From Dehalococcoidia bacterium (GTDB lineage: Bacteria > Chloroflexota > Dehalococcoidia > UBA2979), in NCBI GenBank assembly GCA_963667515.2, contig CAXXXY010000006.1, positions 80,531-112,530 of the forward strand: 32,000 bases of DNA, read 5' to 3'. A program made the position numbers and the translations under genes. Shown one piece after another: positions 4,842 through 32,000 of this stretch; position 1 is the first letter of the stretch, and the number at the start of each line of letters is the position of its first letter. The notes under the pieces were generated by a model. It had not been told where the DNA came from. It was given only the letters and a program-made list of their open reading frames with translations, and ran no database searches.

Positions 4842-5049
4842 CTCCTGCGCACCGACCTCGGCCAGGTCGTGGAAGTAGCCGCTCCCCTCGCGCCTCCGAT
4901 CCTCGAACGCCTCGTCGCCGCGCCCACCCGGGCTCGGCGCGCCGACGATACCGCGGCGGCGGCGCGGCGCACCTCGGCGCGCGGATGCGGCGTCGAGGCG
5001 TTCGAGGGCGGGGCGATCGAGCGCGCGGCGGTCGAGGGGCAGTGCTAGC

Positions 5050-6099
5050 TGTACTACCCAGGAAGGTTGTTCACAGGCGGGAGGCGGGGACGGCCCCGCC
5101 GACGCCGCCGTGCGGTCGGCGGTGATTGTAGCGGTAGAGCCAGCGTGGGAGCTGGCGCAGCCGCTCGGCGTTGGAGCGGTAGGGGCGGGCGTAGGCCCAC
5201 TCGTTCTGCAGGATCTGGATGAAACGCTCGGCTTTGCCGTTCGTCTGCGGGCGGTAGGGCCGCGTGTGCGACAGCCGCACGTCTGCGGCAGCGGCGGCGC
5301 CGTGGAAGCTGCGGGCGACGGTGTAGGCCTTCGCGTTGTCGGTCAGGACCCGGCGCACGCGCACGCCACGCCGGCGGAAGGCCGCGAGCGCCTGCTCGAG
5401 GAAGGCGGCGCAGCTCGCGCCACGCTCGTCGGGCAGGACGGAGACGTAGGCGTAACGGCTGTGGTCGTCGACGGCGACGTGTAGGTACTCCAGCCCCAGC
5501 GAACGCCGCGAATGCGGCCCGGAGCGCGTCTCGGCGAAGCCAGACGCCATTCGCTTGCCGCCGCCCTCGGGGACGCGCCCGAGCTTCTTCACGTCGAGAT
5601 GCAGCAGGTCGCCGGGGGCGTCGTGCTCGTAGCGGACCGGCTCCCGGGTGACGCGGTGCAGGCAGTCGAGCCGGTTGAGGCCGCGGCGCCGCAGCACGGC
5701 GTAGACCGTGGAGCGGGCGACCCCGAGCGCCCACTGGATGCGATGCGGCCCGAATCCCTGCGTGCGTCGCACGGCGCAGATGCGTCGCTCCAGCTCGGGC
5801 GGCGTGCGCCGAGGATGCGCGCGCGGGGCGGAGCTGCGGTCCTCGAGCCCTGCCGCTCCCTCCGCCCGGAAGCGCCCCAGCCACTTGGCAACGGTGTGGC
5901 GGGAGACGCGGAAGTGGCGAGCGACCTCAGCCTGGGGCCAGCCGGCGTCCACTTCCCGCACGAGCTCGAGTCGGGTCAGCGGCGTCAGCCGCGCGTTACG
6001 ATGGGCCATGAGGGTGTCCTCTCCTCGCTACTGCCGTGCTGTCACACACAGCAGCGGGCGAGGCCCCTCATCCTGTCAACAACCTACGTGGGAACTACA
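5050..6099 (-). mobile_element. IS481-family insertion sequence, copy 1 (1050 bp)
   Basis: Imperfect 28-bp terminal inverted repeats: left TGTACTACCCAGGAAGGTTGTTCACAGG, right (reverse complement) TGTAGTTCCCACGTAGGTTGTTGACAGG. Flanked by a perfect direct repeat GCTAGC (5044-5049 and 6100-6105). Single DDE transposase ORF. Confidence 0.9.
5071..6009 (-). CDS. IS481-family DDE transposase
   Basis: 312 aa. N-terminal HTH ('MAHRNARLTPLTRLELVREV..'), then integrase-like core 'LLHLDVKKLG..', 'VLTDNAKAY..', 'YRPQTNGKAERF', typical of IS481/IS3-like transposases. Confidence 0.92.
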   Translation of the reverse strand: MAHRNARLTPLTRLELVREVDAGWPQAEVARHFRVSRHTVAKWLGRFRAEGAAGLEDRSSAPRAHPRRTPPELERRICAVRRTQGFGPHRIQWALGVARSTVYAVLRRRGLNRLDCLHRVTREPVRYEHDAPGDLLHLDVKKLGRVPEGGGKRMASGFAETRSGPHSRRSLGLEYLHVAVDDHSRYAYVSVLPDERGASCAAFLEQALAAFRRRGVRVRRVLTDNAKAYTVARSFHGAAAAADVRLSHTRPYRPQTNGKAERFIQILQNEWAYARPYRSNAERLRQLPRWLYRYNHRRPHGGVGGAVPASRL

Positions 6100-6100
6100 G

Positions 6101-7147
6101 CTAGCCGGCGGCGACGGGCTCGCTCGCGGCGGCCGCGCCCGCAGCGACCATCCGGCGGCGGATCGCCGGCGCCAGCGAGTCTGCGAGCGCGCGGTGGCCC
6201 GCGGCGGTGGGGTGCACGTCGACGGGGAAGCGGAAGCCGCGCCGCGTGGCACGCGGATAGCGCAGCAGGTCGGGCAGCGGGTCGTGCACGGCGAGGGCGG
6301 GCGGGCGCTCCAGCTCCGCGAAGCGCGCGCGGTAGCCGGAAGGCGAGGCGACCTCGTCCATGTGCTGCGCGAGCAGCAGCGGCACCACCAGCAGCGGCGC
6401 GCTCGACTCGGCGGCCCAGCGCTCGAGGATCGCTCGCATCAGCAGCCACGACGGCTCGTCGGCGCGCTGGTACTGCCAGTCGGGGTAGGCGCCCGTGACG
6501 CGCCTCGCCAGCCGCGACGCGCGCGGCCCCAGCCGGTAGACGAGGTCGCGCAGACGGCCGCGAGACGGCGCGCCCGAGGGGTACGGCGCGTCGCCCGCCG
6601 CCAGCGAGGCCGGGTCGATCGGGTCAGCCGGCACCGGCACCTGGCGCAGCGCCAGCGACCCATCGTCCTCGCGGGTGAAGTAGGGACGCGCGAAGAGGCG
6701 GTAGCCCGTCTCCGTGGGCGCCGCGAACTTCATCGTGCTGGCCACGATGCGCGCGATGTTCTCGACCCAGATCGCGACGACCACGAGATCGTGCTCGATC
6801 CCCCGCGCCAGCTCGCGGTAGGCGAGGTACTGCTGATCGGTGCCGCTGCCCGAGATGCCGAAGTTGTAGACCTCGAGGCCCGGCGTGCCGGCCTCCAGGA
6901 CGTCGCCGTCGCGCTTCGCGTTGCTGACGCCGTCGCCCACCGTGAAGGAGTCGCCGAAGAGCAGCACGCGGTAGGTCCCCGGCGCCTTCTCGGCTGTGTA
7001 CTCGCGGTCGGAGCGCAGCCCCATCGCGTTGGCGCACAGCAGGTAGCCGCCGCCCTCGTGGGGGGCGCGCGTGCGCAGACCGGGCGCGAAGGTGTGCCCG
7101 ATGACGGGGTGATAGCGGAAGTGGTCGCGCGTGCCGAGGCTCGCCAT
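6101..7147 (-). CDS. SGNH/GDSL-family hydrolase
   Basis: 348 aa. ATG at 7147 with RBS GGAGGA. 'VLLFGDSFTVGDG' (block I), 'NFGISGSGTDQ' (block II), 'DVHPTAAGH' (block V). The TAG stop (6101-6103) lies inside the IS target duplication. Confidence 0.8.
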   Translation of the reverse strand: MASLGTRDHFRYHPVIGHTFAPGLRTRAPHEGGGYLLCANAMGLRSDREYTAEKAPGTYRVLLFGDSFTVGDGVSNAKRDGDVLEAGTPGLEVYNFGISGSGTDQQYLAYRELARGIEHDLVVVAIWVENIARIVASTMKFAAPTETGYRLFARPYFTREDDGSLALRQVPVPADPIDPASLAAGDAPYPSGAPSRGRLRDLVYRLGPRASRLARRVTGAYPDWQYQRADEPSWLLMRAILERWAAESSAPLLVVPLLLAQHMDEVASPSGYRARFAELERPPALAVHDPLPDLLRYPRATRRGFRFPVDVHPTAAGHRALADSLAPAIRRRMVAAGAAAASEPVAAG

Positions 7148-7361: not shown

Positions 7362-8405
7362 ATGCCGGTGAGCACCATGCCCCCGCCGCGCATCTCGGTC
7401 GGCGTCCCCGTATACAACGGCGAGCGCTTCCTCCCCGAGACGCTCGACTCGCTGCTGGCGCAGACCGAGAGCGACTTCGAGATCCTGCTGTGCGACAACG
7501 GCTCCACCGACGGCACCGAGGCGATCGGCCGCGACTACGCCGCGCGCGACCCGCGCGTGCGCTACGAGCGCACCCCGCAGAACCGCGGCGCCGCGTTCAA
7601 CTTCAACCGCACGCTCGAGCTGGCGAGCGCGCCCTACTTCAAGTGGGCCGCCGCCGATGACGTGTGCGCGCCACGCTTCCTCGAGCGCTGCCTCGCCGCG
7701 CTCGAGGAAGACCACGGCGTCGTGCTCGCCTACCCGCTGACCGCGATGATCGACGAGGACGGCGCACTGATCGATCAGCCGGGCGACGTGGCGCGCGTCG
7801 GCGAGTGGCCCACCGACGTGCGGCGCCGCACGCAGACGATCATCGGCGCCGTCTTCCGCGACGGGCGCGCCGCCGCCACCACCGTCCACGGCCTAGTCCG
7901 CACCGACGCGGTGCGCCGCGCCCGCCCCTTCGGCGCCTACTTCGGATCGGACTTCGCGCTGGTCACGGAGCTCGCCCTCATCGGCCGCATCGCCGAGGTG
8001 CCGGAGCTGCTGGCGTTCTTCCGCCGGCACCCCGACTCCTCCTCCGGCTACGCGCGGCGCCCCTCGGCGAAGGCGATGGAGTCATTCTTCCACGCCGGCT
8101 CTGGGAGCGTGCTGCGCGGCCAGCTGGCGCTGCGGCGCCGCTACGTGGAGGTGCCGCGCGCGATCCTGCGCTCTCGCGAGCCGCTGGCGCGCCGCCTCCT
8201 GCTCGTCGGGTGGACGCTGCAGCAGGTGACCCGCCGCGCCGCGTGGCGCGTCGGCTGGGAGCTGCGCGGCCTGCGGCGCGGCGCGAGCGAGCAGGCGCAC
8301 GCCGTCGAGCTCGAGCACCCGCACTGGTCGGAGCTCTGCGGCGCCGAGGCGCACTCCGTCGGCGCCGCCGACGGCTGGCGGACGCTCGCGCCGATCGAGG
8401 GCTAG
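7362..8405 (+). CDS. Family-2 glycosyltransferase
   Basis: 'ISVGVPVYNGERFLPETLDSLLAQTESDFEILLCDNGSTDGT..' is a GT2 N-terminal signature. Alternative start at ATG 7377. Divergent from the SGNH gene. Confidence 0.8.
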   Translation: MPVSTMPPPRISVGVPVYNGERFLPETLDSLLAQTESDFEILLCDNGSTDGTEAIGRDYAARDPRVRYERTPQNRGAAFNFNRTLELASAPYFKWAAADDVCAPRFLERCLAALEEDHGVVLAYPLTAMIDEDGALIDQPGDVARVGEWPTDVRRRTQTIIGAVFRDGRAAATTVHGLVRTDAVRRARPFGAYFGSDFALVTELALIGRIAEVPELLAFFRRHPDSSSGYARRPSAKAMESFFHAGSGSVLRGQLALRRRYVEVPRAILRSREPLARRLLLVGWTLQQVTRRAAWRVGWELRGLRRGASEQAHAVELEHPHWSELCGAEAHSVGAADGWRTLAPIEG

Positions 8406-8408
8406 CTC

Positions 8409-8473
8409 ACGCAGCTCACTCGCCGCAGCTCAGCCCTCAGCGCGCACCCCCCGCAGCTCACCCCCGCAGCTCA
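8409..8473. repeat. Short iterated motif CGCAGCTCA (4 copies), last two as 13-bp tandem CCCCCGCAGCTCA
   Basis: GCAGCTCA at 8411-8418, 8425-8432, 8453-8460 and 8466-8473, between the convergent GT2 and flavin-reductase stops. The last copy overlaps the TGA of the latter. Confidence 0.6.
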
Positions 8474-11371: not shown

Positions 11372-11619
11372 CGGTTCGCCTCCGCTCCACGGCTCGCCGC
11401 CTCCGCCGCGGCCCCGAGCTCCGCCAGCAGCGCGTCCAGCTCGCGCGCCTCCTCGGCGGTCGCGCGCTCGACGGCCATGCCCAGCGCGACGAGCACGTGG
11501 TCGCCCGGTGCGAGGCCCAGCAGCGCCAGCGCCGACACCTCGCGCGCCACGCCCCCCACCTCGACGAGGGCGCGCGCACCCTCGGCGCGCAGCACGCGGC
11601 CCGGTAGCGCCGTGCACAT
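11368..11619 (-). CDS. hypC: Hydrogenase maturation chaperone HypC/HybG/HupF family
   Basis: 83 aa starting 'MCTALPGRVL..' (N-terminal Cys after Met) and '..GDHVLVALGMAVERATAEEA', as in HypC. The start overlaps the hypA-like stop (TGATG). Confidence 0.88.
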   Translation of the reverse strand: MCTALPGRVLRAEGARALVEVGGVAREVSALALLGLAPGDHVLVALGMAVERATAEEARELDALLAELGAAAEAASRGAEANR

Positions 11620-11860
11620 CAGGACGGTCCCGGCACCACGACGCTCTCGAGCGCCACGCCGCCCGTCGCGGCCGAGCGGATCTCGATCGCCGCGCCCTCG
11701 GCGGGCGTCCCCGCGGCCGCAGCGAGCAGCGAGAGCTCGAGCGCCCCCGCCTCGAAGCCTCCCTCGGGGCCCAGCCGCAGCCGCAGCGCCGCCAGCTCGC
11801 CGCCCCCGCCGCCTCCACCGCGCGCGTCACGATGCGACGCGCGACGCCGAGCTCGTGCAT
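11619..11860 (-). pseudogene. hypA: HypA-like nickel-insertion protein lacking the zinc-finger domain, frame-disrupted
   Basis: 'MHELGVARRIVTRAVEAAG' (MHE nickel-binding N-terminus) from ATG 11860. The rest, 'ELAALRLRLGPEGGFEAGALELSLLAAAAGTPAEGAAIEIRSAATGGVALESVVV', is in another frame, with the shift at the C5/G5 run 11803-11807. There are no CxxC..CxxC motifs. Confidence 0.65.
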
Positions 11861-12404
11861 CGCAGCTCCTCCTCCACCGCCTCCAGCAGCGGCCCAGCGC
11901 GCGCTCGCACGACCGCGAGAGCGGCGCGCCGTGCTCCACCGCCTCGGGCTCGACGCCGTAGATCACGAGCGAGGCGGGGAGCCGGCCGAGCGCGCGCGCC
12001 AGATCGACGGCCGCCGCCGCGCCCAGCCCATGCGTCGAGGCGCCGCCGCGCGCCAGCCGCCCCGCGAGCCGCCCCGGCAGCGGCGCCGCGCGCGCGTCGA
12101 CGCGGTGCACCGTCCCCGGCGGCGCACCCGTGCGCACCGCGTCCAGCAGCAGCACGCTCGGCTCCCCGTCCCACGCCGCCAGCAGCCCCGCCGCGTCGCC
12201 GTCCGCGAGCAGCACCCGCGCCGCCACGCCGGGGCGCTGCGCGAGCCGCGCGCGCAGTCGCTCCGCCGCGACGAGGCCGACGGCGTCGTCGCCGCGCAGC
12301 CGGTTGCCGACGCCGATCACGAGCGGCGGCGCTGCGCCCCGATCGCGCGCCGCCGCCACGCCTCGACGGCGCGCCTCGCCGCGCCTCGTCACGCGCGCGG
12401 CCAT
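11827..12404 (-). pseudogene. [NiFe]-hydrogenase maturation endopeptidase (HyaD/HycI/FrhD family), frame-disrupted near the C-terminus
   Basis: 'PLVIGVGNRLRGDDAVGLVAAERL..LLLDAV..GAPPGTVHRVD..STHGLGAAAAVDLARALGRLPASLVIYGVEPE' are protease family motifs. The ATG (12404) overlaps the large-subunit stop. The shift is near 11915, after which 'VVRARAGPLLEAVEEEL' continues to TGA 11827. Confidence 0.75.
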
Positions 12405-13728
12405 CAGCCCCGTTCCACAGTGAGGTCGAGGAAGTGCGTGGCGCAGGAGATGCACGGGTCGAAGGCGCGGATCAGCTGCTCGCAGCCGTGCGTCAGCTCC
12501 GGCTCCGGGATGTCGAAGCGCGGCGCGGCGAGGGCGGCGAGATCCTCCTCGATCGCGCGCTGGTTCTGCGAGGTCGGCGGCACGATCTTCGCGTCGACGA
12601 TCGTCCCCTCGGCGTCGAGCGTGTAGCGGTGGTAGAGGAGGCCGCACGGCGCCTCGGTCACGGCGTAGCCCTCCCGGCGAGGCCGCTCCCGGCGCGCGGC
12701 TCGGCCTCGGCGAAGGGGGGCCGCGGCTGCTCGTACTCCGCGATCAGCCGCAGCGCCTCCTCGACGGCGAAGAGCAGCTCCGGCGCGCGCACCACGATCG
12801 AGCGGAACGGGTTGCGGAGCGGTGGCGCCACGCCCGCCACCTCGGCGGCCTCGCGCACGAGCGCCGGCAGCCGCTCGTAGTTGAAGGCGTAGCGCGCCAG
12901 CGGCCCGACGAGGTAGCTACGCTCCCCGTCGAGCAGCGAGTGCAGCGTCGTAGTGTACCGGAGCTACCGCTCCTCGAAGCGGTCGTCGTACTGCGGCGCC
13001 GCGACGTCGAGGCCGTCGCTCGAGACGATGCGCCCCTCGTTCATCGGGTACTCGGCGGGGTGGCGCAGCGCGACGAGCAGGTACTCCGCCTCGAACTCCG
13101 GCGTCGGCAGCGCCGCGGTCCAAACGACCAGCGCGAGCGCCTCTTCGCGCGCGCGCTCCAGCGTGGCGGCGAGCGGGCGCAGCTCGGCGGGGCGCGGCAC
13201 GCGATGGAAGCCGCCGACGCGCACGTTGATCGGGTGCACCTCGCGGCCGCCGACCAGCGCCATCACGGCGTTGCCCGCCGCCTTCAGCGCCAGCCCGCGC
13301 TCGACGACCTGCGGGTGGTCGGCGGCCATCGCGATCGCGTCTGGGTAGCCGAGGAAGTCCGGCGCGTGGAGCATCGTGACGTGCAGCGCGTGGCTCGCGA
13401 TCCATTCGCCGCAGTAGAGCGGGCGGCGCAGCTCGCGGACGCCGGCGGGCGGCACGAGGCCCAGCGCGTCCTCCATCGCGTGCACCGCGCTCATCTGGTA
13501 GGCGACGGGGCAGATGCCGCAGATGCGCGCCGTGATGTCGGGCGCCTCCGAGTAGTGCCGCCGCCGCAGGAAGCCCTCGAAGAAGCGCGGCGGCTCGAAG
13601 ATGGCGAGCTGCACCTCCTCGACGCGGCCGCCCGCGACGCGCAGGCGCAGCGATCCCTCGCCCGCCATCCGCGGCAGGTAGTCGACGCGGATCTCGCGCG
13701 TCCCGCTCTCGCGCGTGGCGTCGGTCAC
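12404..13728 (-). pseudogene. [NiFe]-hydrogenase large (alpha) subunit, group 3 type; in-frame TAG plus one frameshift
   Basis: GTG 13728 overlaps the small-subunit stop (GTGA). N-terminal Ni motif '[10 protein letters not shown]', central 'VGPLARYAFNYERL', C-terminal 'DPCISCATH'. Interrupted by TAG at 12964-12966 in the same frame, and by a 1-nt shift near 12674. Confidence 0.85.
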
Positions 13729-14482
13729 GGCGCCCCCTCGAGGCGCTCGGCCGCCGCGCGGAACGGCTCGGCGCCCGCGTGGAAGCTGCGGAACGCGCGC
13801 ACGAGCTCGCGGTCGCTCGCGCCCAGTGCGCGCCACCCCTCGGACAGCGACGCGGTGCTCGCCGTCTCGGCGGGGCCGTAGCAGCCGTAGCAACCGCGGT
13901 CGTAGCCCGGGCAGAGCGCGCCGCAGCCCGCGTGGGTGACGGGGCCCACGCAGACCGAGTGCTCCTCGATCCGCGGGCGCCGGCCCGCGAGGTAGGCGCT
14001 CATCACCTCGGCGAGCTGCCCCACGTCGATCGGGCAGCCGCGCAGCTCGAAGTCGACGGGCACGTGCTCGGAGATCGGCGTGGAGCGGTCGAGCGTGCGC
14101 ACGTACTCCGGCCGCGCGTAGACCACCGCGGCGAGCTCCCGCATGTCGACGAAGTTGCGCAGCGCCTGGATGCCGCCCGAGATGGCGCAGGCGCCGATCG
14201 TGACGAGCTACCGCGACTCCTCCCGCACGCGGTGGATGCGCCGCTCGTCCTCGGGCGTGGTGATCGAGCCCTCGACGAGCGAGAGGTCGTACGGCCCCGG
14301 CTCGGCGCGGCTGCTCGCCTCGGGGAAGTAGCGATCTCCACCTCGCGCGCCAGCGTCAGCAGATCGCGGTCGAGCGAGAGCACGGAGAGCTGGTAGCCGT
14401 CGCAGGAGGCGAACTTCCACACGGCGACGCGCGGCCGCCCTTCGCCTCGCCTGCGAGCCGTCACCACCGCGTGCGCGCTCAC
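13725..14482 (-). pseudogene. [NiFe]-hydrogenase small (delta) subunit, NuoB-like; in-frame TAG plus one frameshift
   Basis: GTG 14482 overlaps the gamma stop (GTGA). '[15 protein letters not shown]', '[39 protein letters not shown]', 'FELRGCPID', '[19 protein letters not shown]'. TAG at 14208-14210 in frame; shift near 14331. Confidence 0.85.
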
Positions 14483-15399
14483 AGCTCCGGCACCTCGAGG
14501 CAGCCGCCCAGCTCGGCGAACGAGAGCACCGGGCCGTCGCGGCAGACGAAGCTCTCGCGGAGCTGGCAGCGACCGCAGAGCCCCACGGCGCAGTGCATGT
14601 TGCGCTCCAGCGAGAGGTAGACGCGCTCCGGCGCGACGCCGCGCGCGGTGAGGTCGAGCGCGACCAGTGCATCATCATCTCGGGCCCGCAGACGAAGGCG
14701 ACGGCCTCGCGGGGCTCGAAGCGCGCGCGTCCGAGGTGCGCCGTGACCCAGCCGACGTCGCCGCGCCAGCGCTCGTCGGCGTGGTTCACCGTGACCAGCA
14801 CGTCGAGCTCCGGGTGGCGGCGCCAGCGCTCCAGCTCGCGGCGGAAGAGCAGCTCGCGCGGCGAGCTGGCGCCGTAGAGCAGCGTGGCGCGGCCGTAGCG
14901 CTCACGACGCTCGAGGATCGCGCGCAGCGCCGCCGCCAGCGGGGCGAGCCCCAGCCCGCCCGCGACGAGCAGCACGTCGGCGCCCTCCCCCTCGGCCTCG
15001 GCCTCGTCGAGCGGCCAGCCGCGCCCGAAGGGTCCGCACACCCCCACGGCATCGCCGCGCTCGAGGGCCCACAGCGCCTCGGTGACGGCGCCGACGGCGC
15101 GGATCGTGTGGCGAAGCGTGCCGCCCGGCTGCGTGGCGCTCGCCTCGGCGGCGCCCACCTGGGCCCGGCGCTCCCGGGCGCCGCTCACCGAGATCGGCGC
15201 CTCACCGACGCCCAGCGCGGTAAGGATCGTGAACTGCCCCGGCCGCACCTCGATCGGCGTCGCGGCCGGGCTCGAGCTCGAGCGAGCGCACGTCCGCCGT
15301 CTCGCGGCGCGTGCGGGCGATGCGCCAGATCGCGGGCAGCAGCGCCATCGTCGCGCCGGCCGGCGGAGAGGCTGGCGCGGGAGCCGCCAGCGCGCTCAC
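14479..15399 (-). pseudogene. Hydrogenase gamma subunit (FAD/NAD(P)-binding, PyrK/AsrB-like, with C-terminal Fe-S Cys cluster), two frameshifts
   Basis: '[27 protein letters not shown]' shifts (about 15268) to '[57 protein letters not shown]', which shifts (about 14670) to '[34 protein letters not shown]'. Candidate starts are GTG 15399 or ATG 15348. Confidence 0.75.
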
Positions 15400-15889
15400 G
15401 GCCGGGCTCGCGCGCGGGCGCCGCGCTCGCGGGCGGCGCGTAGAGGTGGAGCAACTGCAGCCGCGCCGCCTCCAGCCGCTGCGTCATGACCGCGACGAAG
15501 CGCGTGAGCAGCTCGTAGCCGAGCTCATGGTCGCCCGCGAACTTGCCGCGCAGGCAGGCGCCATCGAGCGCGACCACGCGCGTCAGCTCCAGCGCGCGCG
15601 CGTCGAAGCGCTGCACGTACGGCGGGACGATCCACGCCCAGCCGAGGATCTCGCCCTCGCCCAGCGTCTGCAGCGTGAGCCGCCCGCGGTCGGCGGCGTC
15701 CAGCTCGACGGCGACGCGGCCGTGGCGGATGAGGAAGAACTCGCGCGCGTCCTGGCCCTGGCGGAAGATCGTCTCGCCCGCGCGGTAGCGCGGGTTCGAG
15801 GCGCAGCCCGCGAGCAGCGCGATCTGCGCCTCGCTCATGCCGCGGAAGAAGGCGTGCTCGGCGAGGATGCCCTCGAGGCCGCGAATCAC
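15396..15889 (-). CDS. Cyclic-nucleotide-binding (CAP effector-type) domain protein embedded in the hydrogenase operon; 3' end uncertain
   Basis: GTG 15889 overlaps the beta stop (GTGA). '[77 protein letters not shown]' is a cNMP-binding fold. The printed frame has no stop until 15185. A GTGA start/stop overlap at 15396-15399 exists in a different frame, implying one more shift around 15400-15440. Confidence 0.7.
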
Positions 15890-17142
15890 GGCGCACCCTC
15901 CTCGCCCCGCGCGCCGCGACGCGCGCCCGCCGGCGGCGCCGCCCGCACCGGCATCGGCGCCGCGCGGATCGCCGCCGCCTCGTGCGTGATGTCGATGCCC
16001 ACGGGACACCAGGTGATGCAGCGCCCACAGCTGACGCGGCCCGAGCTGCCGAACTGGTCGATCCAGCTCGCGAGCTTGTGCGTCAGCCACTGCCGGTAGC
16101 GCGAGCGAGTGCTGCCGCGCACGTGGCCGCCGGCGAACGCGCTGAAGTCGAGGCTGAAGCAGGAGTCCCAGCGCCGCGTCCGCTCGACGTGGGCGCCCGT
16201 CAGGTCGCTCGTGTCGCTCACGGAGCTACAGAAGCAGGTGGGGCAGACCAGCGTCCAGTTGGTGCACGAGAGGCAGCGCGCGGCGACATCGTCCCAGCGC
16301 GGGTGCTCGGCGGCGGCGCGGAGCAGCTCGCGGATGCCCTTGGTGTCGAGCGAGCGGCCGAGCGAGACCGTCGTCGCCTTCACCACGGCGCGCGCTCGCT
16401 CGCGGTCCGCCGCCGTCGCCTCGCGGCGCGGCAGCCGCGCGAGCAGCGCGGAGCCGCGCTCGCTGCCCGCGCGCGCCAGCAGCTCGTGCGTGGCGCCGGC
16501 CTCGCGCCCCTCACCCGCCGGGGGCGTCAGCTCGGTGAGCGCCACGTCGAAGCCGTCCTCGACGCCGGGGCCCGCGTCCATGGAGGCGCAGAAGCAGGTG
16601 CCGCCCGCGACGGCGCACTCGACGGCGATCAGGAAGGCGCCCTCGCTCCGCCGCGCGTAGCCCGCGTCCACGTAGAAGCCGCCCGTGAAGACGCGGTCCT
16701 GCATCGCGATCGCGCGCAGCTCGCAGGCGCGCGCGCCGAGGAAGGCGTGGCGCGTCGCCTCGGGCGGCGGCGCCTCGACGGTCACGGCGTCGCCGTCGCG
16801 GCTCGCCTCCCGCAGCCGCTCGTGCGCGGGAAAGAGGAAGTGCTTCCACGAGTGCGGGCCGACGGCGTAGCCGAAGAGCGTCTCGTCGCCCCACCGCTCC
16901 AGGCGGTAGCGGCCCGGCTCCTGCCGGTCGCCCCAGCCCCGCGGCAGCTCGCCCGCGGAGTCGACGCGGTCGTAGACGATCGCGCCGTCGCGCACGGTGG
17001 GACCGACGACGGCGTAGCCATCCGAGCGTAGCGCCTCGATCAGCGCATCGAGCGCCCCGGGGTCGAGCACCCACGCGGCGGCGCTCTCGGCGAGGGGCTC
17101 GGCGATCGGCGTCTCGGCGGCCACGCTCCGCTCCCTCGGCAC
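15886..17142 (-). CDS. Hydrogenase beta subunit (4Fe-4S dicluster protein, AsrA/HydB-like)
   Basis: 418 aa, intact. '[10 protein letters not shown]', '[16 protein letters not shown]', '[16 protein letters not shown]' are Fe-S motifs. First gene of the minus-strand cluster. Confidence 0.8.
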
Positions 17143-24237: not shown

Positions 24238-24249
24238 CCATGGACTAGG

Positions 24250-25299
24250 TGTACTACCCAGGAAGGTTGTTCACAGGCGGGAGGCGGGGACGGCCCCGCC
24301 GACGCCGCCGTGCGGTCGGCGGTGATTGTAGCGGTAGAGCCAGCGTGGGAGCTGGCGCAGCCGCTCGGCGTTGGAGCGGTAGGGGCGGGCGTAGGCCCAC
24401 TCGTTCTGCAGGATCTGGATGAAACGCTCGGCTTTGCCGTTCGTCTGCGGGCGGTAGGGCCGCGTGTGCGACAGCCGCACGTCTGCGGCAGCGGCGGCGC
24501 CGTGGAAGCTGCGGGCGACGGTGTAGGCCTTCGCGTTGTCGGTCAGGACCCGGCGCACGCGCACGCCACGCCGGCGGAAGGCCGCGAGCGCCTGCTCGAG
24601 GAAGGCGGCGCAGCTCGCGCCACGCTCGTCGGGCAGGACGGAGACGTAGGCGTAACGGCTGTGGTCGTCGACGGCGACGTGTAGGTACTCCAGCCCCAGC
24701 GAACGCCGCGAATGCGGCCCGGAGCGCGTCTCGGCGAAGCCAGGCGCCATTCGCTTGCCGCCGCCCTCGGGGACGCGCCCGAGCTTCTTCACGTCGAGAT
24801 GCAGCAGGTCGCCGGGGGCGTCGTGCTCGTAGCGGACCGGCTCCCGGGTGACGCGGTGCAGGCGGTCGAGCCGGTTGAGGCCGCGGCGCCGCAGCACGGC
24901 GTAGACCGTGGAGCGGGCGACCCCGAGCGCCCACTGGATGCGATGCGGCCCGAATCCCTGCGTGCGTCGCACGGCGCAGATGCGTCGCTCCAGCTCGGGC
25001 GGCGTGCGCCGGGGATGCGCGCGCGGGGCGGAGCTGCGGTCCTCGAGCCCTGCCGCTCCCTCCGCCCGGAAGCGCCCCAGCCACTTGGCAACGGTGTGGC
25101 GGGAGACGCGGAAGTGGCGAGCGACCTCAGCCTGGGGCCAGCCGGCGTCCACTTCCCGCACGAGCTCGAGTCGGGTCAGCGGCGTCAGCCGCGCGTTACG
25201 ATGGGCCATGAGGGTGTCCTCTCCTCGCTACTGCCGTGCTGTCACACACAGCAGCGGGCGAGGCCCCTCATCCTCTCAACAACCTACGTGGGAACTACA
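24250..25299 (-). mobile_element. IS481-family insertion sequence, copy 2 (1050 bp)
   Basis: Colinear with copy 1 at a +19200 offset. Only 4 differences (24744, 24864, 25012, 25275). Flanks are ACTAGG (24244-24249) and GCTAGC (25300-25305). Confidence 0.9.
24271..25209 (-). CDS. IS481-family DDE transposase
   Basis: 312 aa. Differs from the copy-1 protein at two residues (R vs C, P vs S). Confidence 0.92.
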   Translation of the reverse strand: MAHRNARLTPLTRLELVREVDAGWPQAEVARHFRVSRHTVAKWLGRFRAEGAAGLEDRSSAPRAHPRRTPPELERRICAVRRTQGFGPHRIQWALGVARSTVYAVLRRRGLNRLDRLHRVTREPVRYEHDAPGDLLHLDVKKLGRVPEGGGKRMAPGFAETRSGPHSRRSLGLEYLHVAVDDHSRYAYVSVLPDERGASCAAFLEQALAAFRRRGVRVRRVLTDNAKAYTVARSFHGAAAAADVRLSHTRPYRPQTNGKAERFIQILQNEWAYARPYRSNAERLRQLPRWLYRYNHRRPHGGVGGAVPASRL

Positions 25300-25300
25300 G

Positions 25301-26254
25301 CTAGCCTGCGGCCTGCGCGGCCGCGAGCGCGATCGCCCTGAACGCGCTCTCGATCGAGCCCACGCGGTCCTCCGGGTCGATGACGGGGTGCGCCAGCACC
25401 TCGCCCATGCCGGCGTCGAGCAGCCCGACGAGCCCGGCGGCCACCTCCTCGGCGCTCCCGGAGACCACCAGGTCGTCCAGCAGCGCGTCGCTGTAGCTCT
25501 CCTCGATCGGGAAGCCCGCGGCCTCGAACATGCCGCGGTAGTTGGCGCTCTGTGCGTAGTAGCCGAGCGAGCCGCGCACCCCGGCGCGCGCCGTCTCGGG
25601 ATCGGGGGTGACCATCACCGGCACGTGCGCGACGAGCGGCGGGACCGGCCGCCCGGCCGCCTCCGCGCCGCGGCGCATCGCGGGCAGCGCCTCCTCCACG
25701 AGGTAGGTGCGGGGGCACATCCACGAGATCGCGCCATCGGAGAGCTCGCCGCAGAGCTCGAAGGACCTGGGGCGCAGCGCCGAGGCCATGAGCGGGATCG
25801 CCACCGGCCCGCGCAGCCGCGTGCGCGCCACCACGTGCTCGCCCGCGAAGTCCACCTCGCCCGTATCGAAGAGCGCGCGCAGCACCGTGAGGTACTCGCG
25901 CAGCTGCGTCAGCGGCTTGCGCCACGTCACGCCGTACGTCGACTCCATCGCGGGCTGGTGCGCGGGGCCGATGCCCAGGCGGAAGCGCCCGGGCGCCAGC
26001 GACTCGATCGCCAGCGCCTGCTGCGCGATGACGATGGGGTGGCGCGGCCACGTCTGGATGATGCAGGTGCCCATGAGCACGCGCTCGGTCTGGACGCCCG
26101 CCGCGGCGAAGGCCGCCATCGGGTCCTGCCCGCCCGACATGCCGATTGTGCCCCACGTCGCGGGGATGCCGGCGCGCTCCGCCTCGGCGATCTGCTCGAC
26201 CGCCGCGCGCGCGCTCCCGGCCTGGATGTTGACTCCGACAGTACCCCGCGCCAT
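25301..26254 (-). CDS. Luciferase-like (LLM-class, probably F420-dependent) oxidoreductase
   Basis: 317 aa. '..LAPGRFRLGIGPAH..', TIM-barrel LLM pattern, '..EVAAGLVGLLDAG..' C-terminus. The TAG stop (25301-25303) lies inside the IS flank. Confidence 0.8.
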   Translation of the reverse strand: MARGTVGVNIQAGSARAAVEQIAEAERAGIPATWGTIGMSGGQDPMAAFAAAGVQTERVLMGTCIIQTWPRHPIVIAQQALAIESLAPGRFRLGIGPAHQPAMESTYGVTWRKPLTQLREYLTVLRALFDTGEVDFAGEHVVARTRLRGPVAIPLMASALRPRSFELCGELSDGAISWMCPRTYLVEEALPAMRRGAEAAGRPVPPLVAHVPVMVTPDPETARAGVRGSLGYYAQSANYRGMFEAAGFPIEESYSDALLDDLVVSGSAEEVAAGLVGLLDAGMGEVLAHPVIDPEDRVGSIESAFRAIALAAAQAAG

Positions 26255-30846: not shown

Positions 30847-32000
30847 ATGACGAGGCCCACGGAGGTGGCACGCAAGGAGCGCCGACGCGACGGCCAGCAG
30901 TGGTTGCTCGACTGGATGGCGAAGACCACCGGCCGCGTCCAGAACTTCGCGTACGACACGCGCCAGCACCCGCCCGAGGTGAAGAGCTACCGCCAGATCC
31001 CCAAGGTGATCGAGCGCTACGCGCGCCACGCCGAGCAGGTCGCGCGCGGCGCCGAGGCGGCGGGCCACCGCCAGACCGCCTTCGAGCACTACTGGCGCGC
31101 GGCGGACCTCTACCGCGACGCGCAGCACCCGCTCTACTGGGACGACCACCCCGACAAGATCTACCTGCACGCGAAGCTCCTCGAGTGCTACGAGAAGGTG
31201 ATCGAGCTCGCCCCCTACCCCATCCGCCGCGTCGAGGTGCCGTTCGAGGGGCAGCAGATCCAGTGCGTCTTCCACATGGCGGGTGAGCCCGGCGCGCCCA
31301 CCGTGATCGAGGTACCGGGGATGGACCAGACGAAGGAGACGTTCCCGCGGCCCACCCGCAACCCCTTCGTGCAGCGCGGGATGAACGTGCTGGCGATGGA
31401 CGGACCGGGCCAGGGCACGAGCAACATGCGCAAGATCCGCGTCACGGACGACAACTATCAGCGCGCGGGCTCGGCGGTGATCGACTGGCTGGTCGAGCAG
31501 CCCGAGGTGGACGCGGAGCGCATCGGCGTCTCGGGCATCTCGATGGGCTCGTACTGGGGGATGCGCATCGCCGCCTACGACCCGCGCGTGGCGGCGCTCG
31601 CCACGGCCTCGGCGTGCTTCTCGGCGAAGCGCGCGATCTTCGAGGAGGACTCGCCCCGCTTCAAGCAGATGTTCATGTACATGGCGGGCATGCACGACGA
31701 GGACGAGTTCGACGAGATGGCCGAGAGGATGACGATGGAAGGGCACGCCTCCCGCATCACCGCGCCCTCGCTCACCGTCGTCGGCGAGTACGATCCGCTC
31801 TGCCCGCTGGACGAGGCGATCCCGATCTGGGAGGAGATCCAGGGCCCGCGCGAGATGTGGGTGCTGGAGGACGACTTCCACTCCCCGCCCGCCATCGAGG
31901 GGCTGGGCGGCGAGGATGTCTACTACTACATGGCGGACTTCCTGCGCGACGCCTTCGACGGGAAGATTGAGGCCGGGCGCGATGTGACGCGCGTCGTCCC
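30847..32000 (+). CDS. Alpha/beta hydrolase (FrsA/2,6-dihydroxypseudooxynicotine-hydrolase-like), 3' end outside window
   Basis: Not in the ORF track because no stop is reached. Own translation from ATG 30847: 'MTRPTEVARKERRRDGQQWLLDWMAKTTGRVQNF..VIEVPGMDQTKE..IGVSGISMGSYWG..VVGEYDPLCP..LEDDFHS', i.e. Ser (GxSxG), Asp and His triad candidates in order. Confidence 0.75.
   Translation, partial: MTRPTEVARKERRRDGQQWLLDWMAKTTGRVQNFAYDTRQHPPEVKSYRQIPKVIERYARHAEQVARGAEAAGHRQTAFEHYWRAADLYRDAQHPLYWDDHPDKIYLHAKLLECYEKVIELAPYPIRRVEVPFEGQQIQCVFHMAGEPGAPTVIEVPGMDQTKETFPRPTRNPFVQRGMNVLAMDGPGQGTSNMRKIRVTDDNYQRAGSAVIDWLVEQPEVDAERIGVSGISMGSYWGMRIAAYDPRVAALATASACFSAKRAIFEEDSPRFKQMFMYMAGMHDEDEFDEMAERMTMEGHASRITAPSLTVVGEYDPLCPLDEAIPIWEEIQGPREMWVLEDDFHSPPAIEGLGGEDVYYYMADFLRDAFDGKIEAGRDVTRVV

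Follow-up and report, generated by a model that had tools for sequence, protein, structure and literature searches.

The window analysed here is a stretch of 32,000 nucleotides from the genome of a Dehalococcoidia bacterium (GCA_963667515.2, contig CAXXXY010000006.1). Between 11.6 and 17.1 kb its minus strand carries a [NiFe]-hydrogenase operon, in which the gene for the beta subunit is followed by genes for a cNMP-binding protein, the gamma, small and large subunits, a HycI protease and hyp proteins (Table 1). Judging from gene content and the names of homologues, the operon is predicted to be of the group-3b type (hyhBGSL-type), specifying an NAD(P)-linked enzyme; close homologues are named in their sources sulfhydrogenase alpha/delta or F420-reducing hydrogenase alpha/gamma. 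Genes for a beta subunit of Fer4 type (Fer4_22) and a gamma subunit of FAD/NAD and 2Fe-2S type (NAD_binding_1, DHODB_Fe-S_bind) are found adjacent, and the loci of a sister lineage show the same gene order. In the large subunit, Pfam NiFeSe_Hases matches both pieces of the interrupted gene; RICGICP (the RxCGxC motif) is read in the first frame and DPCISCATH (the DPCxxC nickel-ligand motif) is present with the frame shifted. The four-subunit set beta/gamma/small/large is common to the window operon and the sulfhydrogenase type of Pyrococcus furiosus (HyhBGSL, group 3b), and here hycI, hypA and hypC come after the large subunit. Unlike that system, the window operon holds a cNMP-binding gene between beta and gamma, as does the intact sister operon, and its gamma, small, large and hycI/hypA genes are broken.

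Table 1. Features of the hydrogenase operon and copies of the shared 9-mer, in window positions
Feature	Positions	Strand	Remarks
Beta subunit (Fer4_22)	15889..17142	-	Reading frame open
cNMP-binding protein gene, between beta and gamma	15440..15886	-	Present in intact sister operon too
Gamma subunit pseudogene (NAD_binding_1 + DHODB_Fe-S_bind)	14479..15399	-	5-nt deletion at ~15267, 1-nt deletion at ~14666
Small subunit pseudogene (Oxidored_q6)	13725..14482	-	Frameshift, Cys to Tyr, TAG, 57-nt deletion
In-frame TAG, small-subunit pseudogene	14208-14210	-	Pfam Oxidored_q6 match spans stop; 9-mer at 14205-14213
Large subunit pseudogene (NiFeSe_Hases)	12404..13728	-	TAG, frameshift, EAPRG to EAPCG
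In-frame TAG, large-subunit pseudogene	12964-12966	-	Replaces His of E-E-R-H-L-P-Y; 9-mer at 12961-12969
HycI-type endopeptidase and short hypA-like genes	11619..12407	-	1-nt deletions at ~11894 and ~11799 relative to sister
Third 9-mer copy	30984-30992	-	Antisense of AGC-TAC-CGC (Ser-Tyr-Arg), plus-strand ORF

Lesions were placed by alignment to sister DNA (L172 and L173 from JGI samples, L174 and L175 from Logan contigs), in which the operon is intact, syntenic and about 86-88% identical to that of the window. Relative to the sister, the window operon has deletions of 5, 1, 1, 57, 1, 1 and 1 nt. Six of them break the frame (two in gamma, one in the small subunit, one in the large subunit and two in hycI/hypA), and tblastn with intact homologues switches frame in gamma (twice), small and large. 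All five 1-nt indels are deletions, and three of these five fall in short runs of the same base. The small subunit suffers a frameshift from a 1-nt deletion at about 14332 and an in-frame deletion of 57 nt at 13946/13947, with which 19 residues are lost, three conserved cysteines among them; its CxxC motif is changed from CDGCQL to CDGYQL (Cys to Tyr, codon 14393-14395), and its set of Fe-S cysteine ligands is incomplete. The large subunit is frameshifted by a 1-nt deletion at about 12672, and its EAPRG has become EAPCG (Arg to Cys, codon 12644-12646). Both replaced residues, the cysteine and the arginine, are invariant throughout a comparison set of 14 large-subunit and 10 small-subunit proteins. 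Given several independent lesions and the intact orthologues in relatives, the operon is a decayed pseudogene cluster, and at least ten disabling lesions, the two TAGs among them, can be counted in it. No working hydrogenase can be made from it. The original prediction overlooked the death of the operon, and this is the main explanation of the stops.

When was the operon inactivated? The protein branch of the large subunit measures 0.067-0.074 on the window lineage versus 0.054-0.061 on the sister lineage, and the small subunit has accumulated 34 changes on the window side versus 40 on the sister side. Since the dead genes have a protein branch about as long as that of the sister, inactivation seems recent relative to the split between the two. 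It is older than the sampled strain diversity. No relative closer than the sister was found: scans of metagenome and genome contigs with the sister protein gave nothing above 64% identity. Nor was the hydrogenase found in any of the 24 other genomes of the same family that were searched, including four of the same genus. The best named relatives by gyrB are Chloroflexi/Dehalococcoidia MAGs.

The damaged sequence is found repeatedly in DNA assembled elsewhere. Contigs of two runs from different studies and hosts (X4 and X7, the latter with a depth of about 230) are identical to the window over 12400-15300, and one or the other may be the source of the assembly itself. A run from a third host (X8) differs by eight letters, a count without positions, and has no gaps. 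In a 2019 sponge metagenome (X1), three contigs of 151 nt match exactly across 13804-14237, a range that takes in the small-subunit TAG and the junction of the 57-nt deletion, and one of them, identical to the window, covers 14087-14237. A strain variant from another run (L176) has 6 SNPs in 1605 nt with no gaps and keeps both the TAG and the frameshift of the large subunit. In addition, the truncated large-subunit product forms a protein cluster with three different members of 254 aa in which the TAG is kept. An artefact of sequencing, assembly or polishing at a difficult motif, which the original prediction had put forward as a base-calling error, is thereby rendered highly improbable. Such an artefact would fit the tendency of the single-nucleotide deletions, three in five, to drop one base from a short same-base run, and would fit an assembly that resembles a long-read metagenome bin (11 contigs, 87% complete). 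However, independent assemblies of runs from four studies show the same letters, as do a slightly different strain and the short contigs of the 2019 metagenome. Given that the same TAG-bearing sequence recurs in independent contigs and in strain variants, which span runs, studies and hosts and differ by SNPs, base-calling or polishing error is excluded as the source of the stops. A systematic conversion of CGGCACCTC or CGGCAGCTC to CGGTAGCTC was considered as well and rejected, since both are abundant elsewhere in the assembly, with 226 and 380 intact copies, respectively.

The original prediction had pointed to two in-frame TAG codons lying in an identical CGG-TAG-CTC context, one in each catalytic subunit, and to a single further copy of this 9-mer in the window that creates no stop; the letters bear out both observations. 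In the window CGGTAGCTC occurs three times, always on the minus strand, versus 0.28 expected, and three or more copies were seen in none of 100 shuffles. The two hydrogenase copies are identical over the 10-mer GCGGTAGCTC. The third copy is unrelated to the hydrogenase stops; the plus-strand ORF over it reads AAG-AGC-TAC-CGC (K-S-Y-R), and this antisense Ser-Tyr-Arg phase is that of most of the 33 copies found in the genome, a density of about 0.36 per 32 kb. Of the 33, the two in the hydrogenase genes are alone in placing TAG in a coding frame. It had also been claimed that family sequence continues beyond each stop in the same frame. In translation, hydrogenase family sequence does flank each TAG on both sides in frame, but the continuity is local, and each gene carries a frameshift and further lesions. 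A proposed excess of in-frame TAGs in the 9-mer context was not borne out in a GC3-based scan of the genome, where the 9-mer came up at the two hydrogenase sites only. The scan, which required a GC3 coding signal on both sides, returned 59 TAG, 33 TGA and 3 TAA candidate codons, most of them probably gene boundaries. A genome-wide excess of in-frame TAGs is likewise rejected, the 59/33/3 distribution being proportional to stop usage.

In the closest intact proteins each subunit has a single R-H-L tripeptide, and in both it is the histidine of this tripeptide that TAG replaces. At the large site the window reads CGG TAG CTC CGG and the sister CGG CAC CTC CCG; at the small site the window reads CGG TAG CTC, the sister CGC CAC CTG and an outgroup (L010) CGC GCG CTC. 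Among 164 homologues the large-site residue is His in 113 and Gln in 45 (27%). The small-site residue is variable, with R-Q-L in 11 of 144 homologues. At the small site the third base, G, is common to the window and the outgroup and the second base, A, is common to the window and the sister; parsimony therefore gives CGC-CAG-CTC as the putative ancestor. From this reconstructed state the window lineage would have changed CAG to TAG by a C>T substitution together with a synonymous CGC to CGG change, and the sister lineage would have changed CAG to CAC and CTC to CTG. A CAG precursor is natural at both sites, and at the large site a CAC precursor with two hits is about as likely: the sister CAC implies either two hits in the window codon or a change of CAG to CAC in the sister at both sites. 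The origin proposed earlier for the stops, CAG to TAG by C>T, thus agrees with parsimony at the small site, and at the large site it is plausible, Gln being present in about a quarter of homologues. C>T is in fact the dominant mutation class of this genome, making up 58 of the 93 variants among 148 copies of an insertion sequence (IS). Codon choice is narrow as well; Gln is encoded by CAG in 98% of cases, Leu by CTC in 43% and Arg by CGG in 22%.

We consider it likely that this is a decaying group 3b operon whose TAGs are stops made by point substitution, and that the identity of the 9-mers is a coincidence helped by codon bias. Each TAG would have arisen by point substitution at a position tolerant of His and Gln in an Arg-x-Leu context, from CAG by the dominant C>T class or, at the large site, from CAC in two steps. 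The shared 9-mer would then follow from the Arg and Leu neighbours, the narrow codon usage and the one synonymous CGC to CGG change at the small site, with the remainder of the identity left to coincidence. We infer that the two TAGs are independent events.

Several observations speak against coincidence. When nonsense events in these genes are simulated neutrally from CAG precursors under the IS-derived spectrum, two of them share a 9-mer with a probability of about 0.002 (about 1 in 500). Of nine sense-strand CAGCTC sites in the operon, three have T in this genome (16228, 14210 and 12966), and the Cys to Tyr replacement is a change at GG[C]AGC on the opposite strand. The derived changes at the small site (14222-14221, 14211 and 14210) all approach the string of the large site, GAGGAG..CGGTAGCTC. 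Yet the case was picked from a very large scan for its coincidence, and we therefore read the shared 10-mer as most likely due to chance, aided by the R-x-L context and the extreme codon bias.

A question remains, could a single process have produced both stops? A context-specific hot spot, in which the C of (G)G-C-AGC(TC), a GCWGC-like motif, is modified or prone to deamination so that CAG to TAG recurs, is quite unlikely. Several changes do fit G[C]WGC: the two TAGs, the Cys to Tyr replacement (GG[C]AGC, on the antisense strand), a synonymous change at 13893 (GG[C]TGC) and the T at 16228, where the sister has G[C]AGCTC. Relative to the sister, such changes number five to seven on the window side and one on the sister side. 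The motif was, however, defined post hoc, and at the scale of the genome its signature is missing. GAG-CTA-CCG occurs 2 times versus 126 for GAG-CTG-CCG, that is 1.6%, and the overall figure is 1.46%; T at NNY-AGC-TC stands at 2.85%, versus 5.5% overall and 2.8% for NNY-A.. contexts. None of the 57 C>T events of the 148 IS copies lies at G[C]WGC, of which the IS has eight sites, and a search for C5-cytosine methyltransferase (PF00145) gave no match in the genome, which is 87% complete, while control genomes were positive. In E. coli lacI, Coulondre and Miller reportedly described in 1978 amber hot spots at 5-methylcytosine (CCAGG). Those hot spots, CAG to TAG by C>T in a fixed context, resemble what probably happened at the small site; the likeness ends there, as this genome has no C5-methyltransferase match and no genome-wide sign of a hot spot. 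The suggestion of a context- or methylation-driven process thus finds no support in methyltransferase content, in synonymous-site T or in the IS events.

It is likewise unlikely that one stop templated the other, with a TAG-bearing stretch of about 4-10 nt (GCG-GTA-GCTC or GTAG) passing from the site hit first to its counterpart at a distance of 1.24 kb, either through microhomology-mediated template switching or through SPDIR-like ectopic integration of a single strand, so that one event would account for the same 10-mer. In SPDIR, clusters of nearby base changes copy ectopic sequence flanked by microhomologies (bioRxiv 10.1101/2023.11.22.568220), so that a mechanism for clustered changes at microhomologies has been described, and the shared 10-mer can be read in this way as GCG + GTA + GCTC. 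The small site offers some encouragement. Its flanking CGG is derived (sister and outgroup both have CGC), the step from CGC-CAG to CGG-TAG is an adjacent double substitution, and an upstream change of CGG to GAG creates GAGGAG, as found before the large site; each of the four derived bases agrees with the string at that site. Against such copying, a permutation test finds no significant concentration of lineage-specific changes around the site (4 in 10 nt, p = 0.39), and a contiguous donor would have erased the TCG codon, which survives between the putative patches. Homology before the event would have been only about 8 of 15 nt, and no feature singles out this donor among the millions possible. 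For lack of significant clustering, and with a codon separating the putative patches, SPDIR is not demonstrable here. Point mutations outnumber events of the SPDIR type and other templated events by orders of magnitude. If copying were true nevertheless, the second stop would be a copy of the first, a natural ectopic micro-conversion spreading a nonsense codon. Among other donors and processes, a footprint of the abundant IS is rejected, since that element is flanked by CTAG whereas the sites read GTAG and show no change in length. Correction of a hairpin or quasi-palindrome is rejected too, the large site offering GGAGC-GGTA-GCTCC and the small site no equivalent. A tRNA-Met D-arm donor shares 17 of 19 positions with the small site, which is about chance here, and leaves the upstream change unexplained.

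Programmed read-through or recoding of TAG (as Pyl, Gln or another residue) in a working hydrogenase, which the original prediction had ranked last, is extremely improbable. Relatives have sense codons where TAG stands, and Gln is one natural occupant at both positions, as recoding would have it. But TAG is the main stop codon of this genome; it closes 610 of the 991 ORFs that show a coding signature and, among those of at least 500 aa, 156 of 237, gyrB included. ARAGORN, run on the whole genome, reports 59 tRNAs, none with a CUA anticodon. Searches of the 87% complete genome for PylS and PylD found neither: TIGR02367 (pylS) gave no match and TIGR03911 (pylD) a match of only 24 bits, far below the cut-off. 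Nor is TAG conserved: CAC stands at either site in the sister, and the small site of the outgroup reads GCG. Between them, these genes have also suffered frameshifts, the deletion of 19 residues and the loss of metal ligands. Stop usage, the lack of a CUA tRNA, the sense codons of the sister and the frameshifts taken together mean that there is essentially no read-through of a working gene here, and recoding is refuted.

The reading we prefer, decay of the operon by ordinary point substitutions and deletions, is in keeping with the genome in which it lies. The assembly comprises 2.9 Mb in 11 contigs with 74% GC and is 87% complete; it holds about 148 near-identical copies of a CTAG-flanked IS element of 1.06 kb, two of them in the window. 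The window stretch itself is found in sponge metagenomes and in runs of three host organisms. These features fit a lineage that is amassing IS copies and shedding dispensable genes. Accumulation of pseudogenes and expansion of IS elements are known from recently host-restricted bacteria such as Mycobacterium leprae, Shigella and Sodalis. The likeness lies in the many identical IS copies and in a dispensable operon lost by small deletions and nonsense changes; the difference is that here the bacterium belongs to sponge-associated Chloroflexota and that decay is read from one operon. A literature search on IS or pseudogene expansion in sponge Chloroflexi found no relevant report. The case is an ordinary decayed operon. 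Its interest lies in part in how it can mislead, as in-frame TAGs in conserved enzymes invite readings of recoding or of methylation artefacts, and gene decay is settled by simple tests: co-occurring lesions, stop usage, suppressor tRNAs, independent reads and sister DNA. The shared 10-mer is a small statistical oddity, of importance only should more such cases come to light and implicate templated mutagenesis. As for the biology, NAD(P)-linked hydrogen metabolism has gone from this sponge-associated Chloroflexota lineage and is kept by a sister lineage, and the genome that lost it has undergone massive IS expansion.

The hydrogenase operon in the window is decayed, and we find that its gene content recurs in an intact syntenic sister operon (86-88% identical) recovered from JGI samples (L172/L173) and from Logan contigs (L174/L175). 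The cNMP-binding gene between the beta and gamma genes, the 80-aa HypA-like gene and the downstream hypC, EamA and DUF6390 genes are all present in the sister operon too. Given that the intact operon shares them, these features, unusual as they are, belong to the lineage and did not arise through decay.

Differences between the window (11500-16620) and the sister sequences L172-L175 are dominated by G-C transversions (338 of 650 substitutions), and all five 1-nt indels on the window-genome side are deletions. Adjacent double substitutions occur between strains, as seen against L176, a strain variant from another run, as well as on the window-genome branch; with five observed and about 2.7 expected by chance, their excess is not clear.

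In samples X4, X7 and X8, public runs whose contigs carry the hydrogenase stretch of the window, there is also a second hydrogenase locus, roughly 80-83% identical, on separate contigs of at most 14.8 kb; the same hosts therefore harbour a related organism that carries this operon.

Locations of the sequence features
Feature	Location	Compared with, or source
Adjacent double substitution	window 13123-13124	L176
Adjacent double substitutions	window 14221-14222; 14181-14182; 13742-13743	
Pieces of second hydrogenase locus	window 12540-12650; 13466-13602; 14025-14198	contigs of X4, X7, X8
1.06-kb IS copies	window 5042-6117; 24245-25304	
Odd tRNA-like calls	C6:754459-754556; C11:166368-166458; C8:125454-125538	ARAGORN
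tRNA-Sec	C2:512125-512221	

Between two convergent genes, four copies of GCAGCTCA (window 8403-8473) directly follow a stop within GGC-TAG-CTCAC. No link of this repeat, with its CAGCTC motif, to the hydrogenase stops was seen, the context being unlike theirs.

At 74% GC, the dominant stop codon is expected to be TGA; across the whole source genome the commonest is TAG, which ends about 62-66% of coding-signature ORFs. Many of these TAG stops lie within GCTAGC, and CTAG is the target of a 1.06-kb IS element. Genome-wide, this element has about 148 full-length copies, roughly 99.5% identical, which take up about 5% of the genome; each contains two overlapping ORFs, and every copy has CTAG on either side, the base adjoining each CTAG being variable. 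Three odd tRNA-like calls elsewhere in the genome have anticodon loops of four or two bases (gaga, tcac, cg) and may be false positives.
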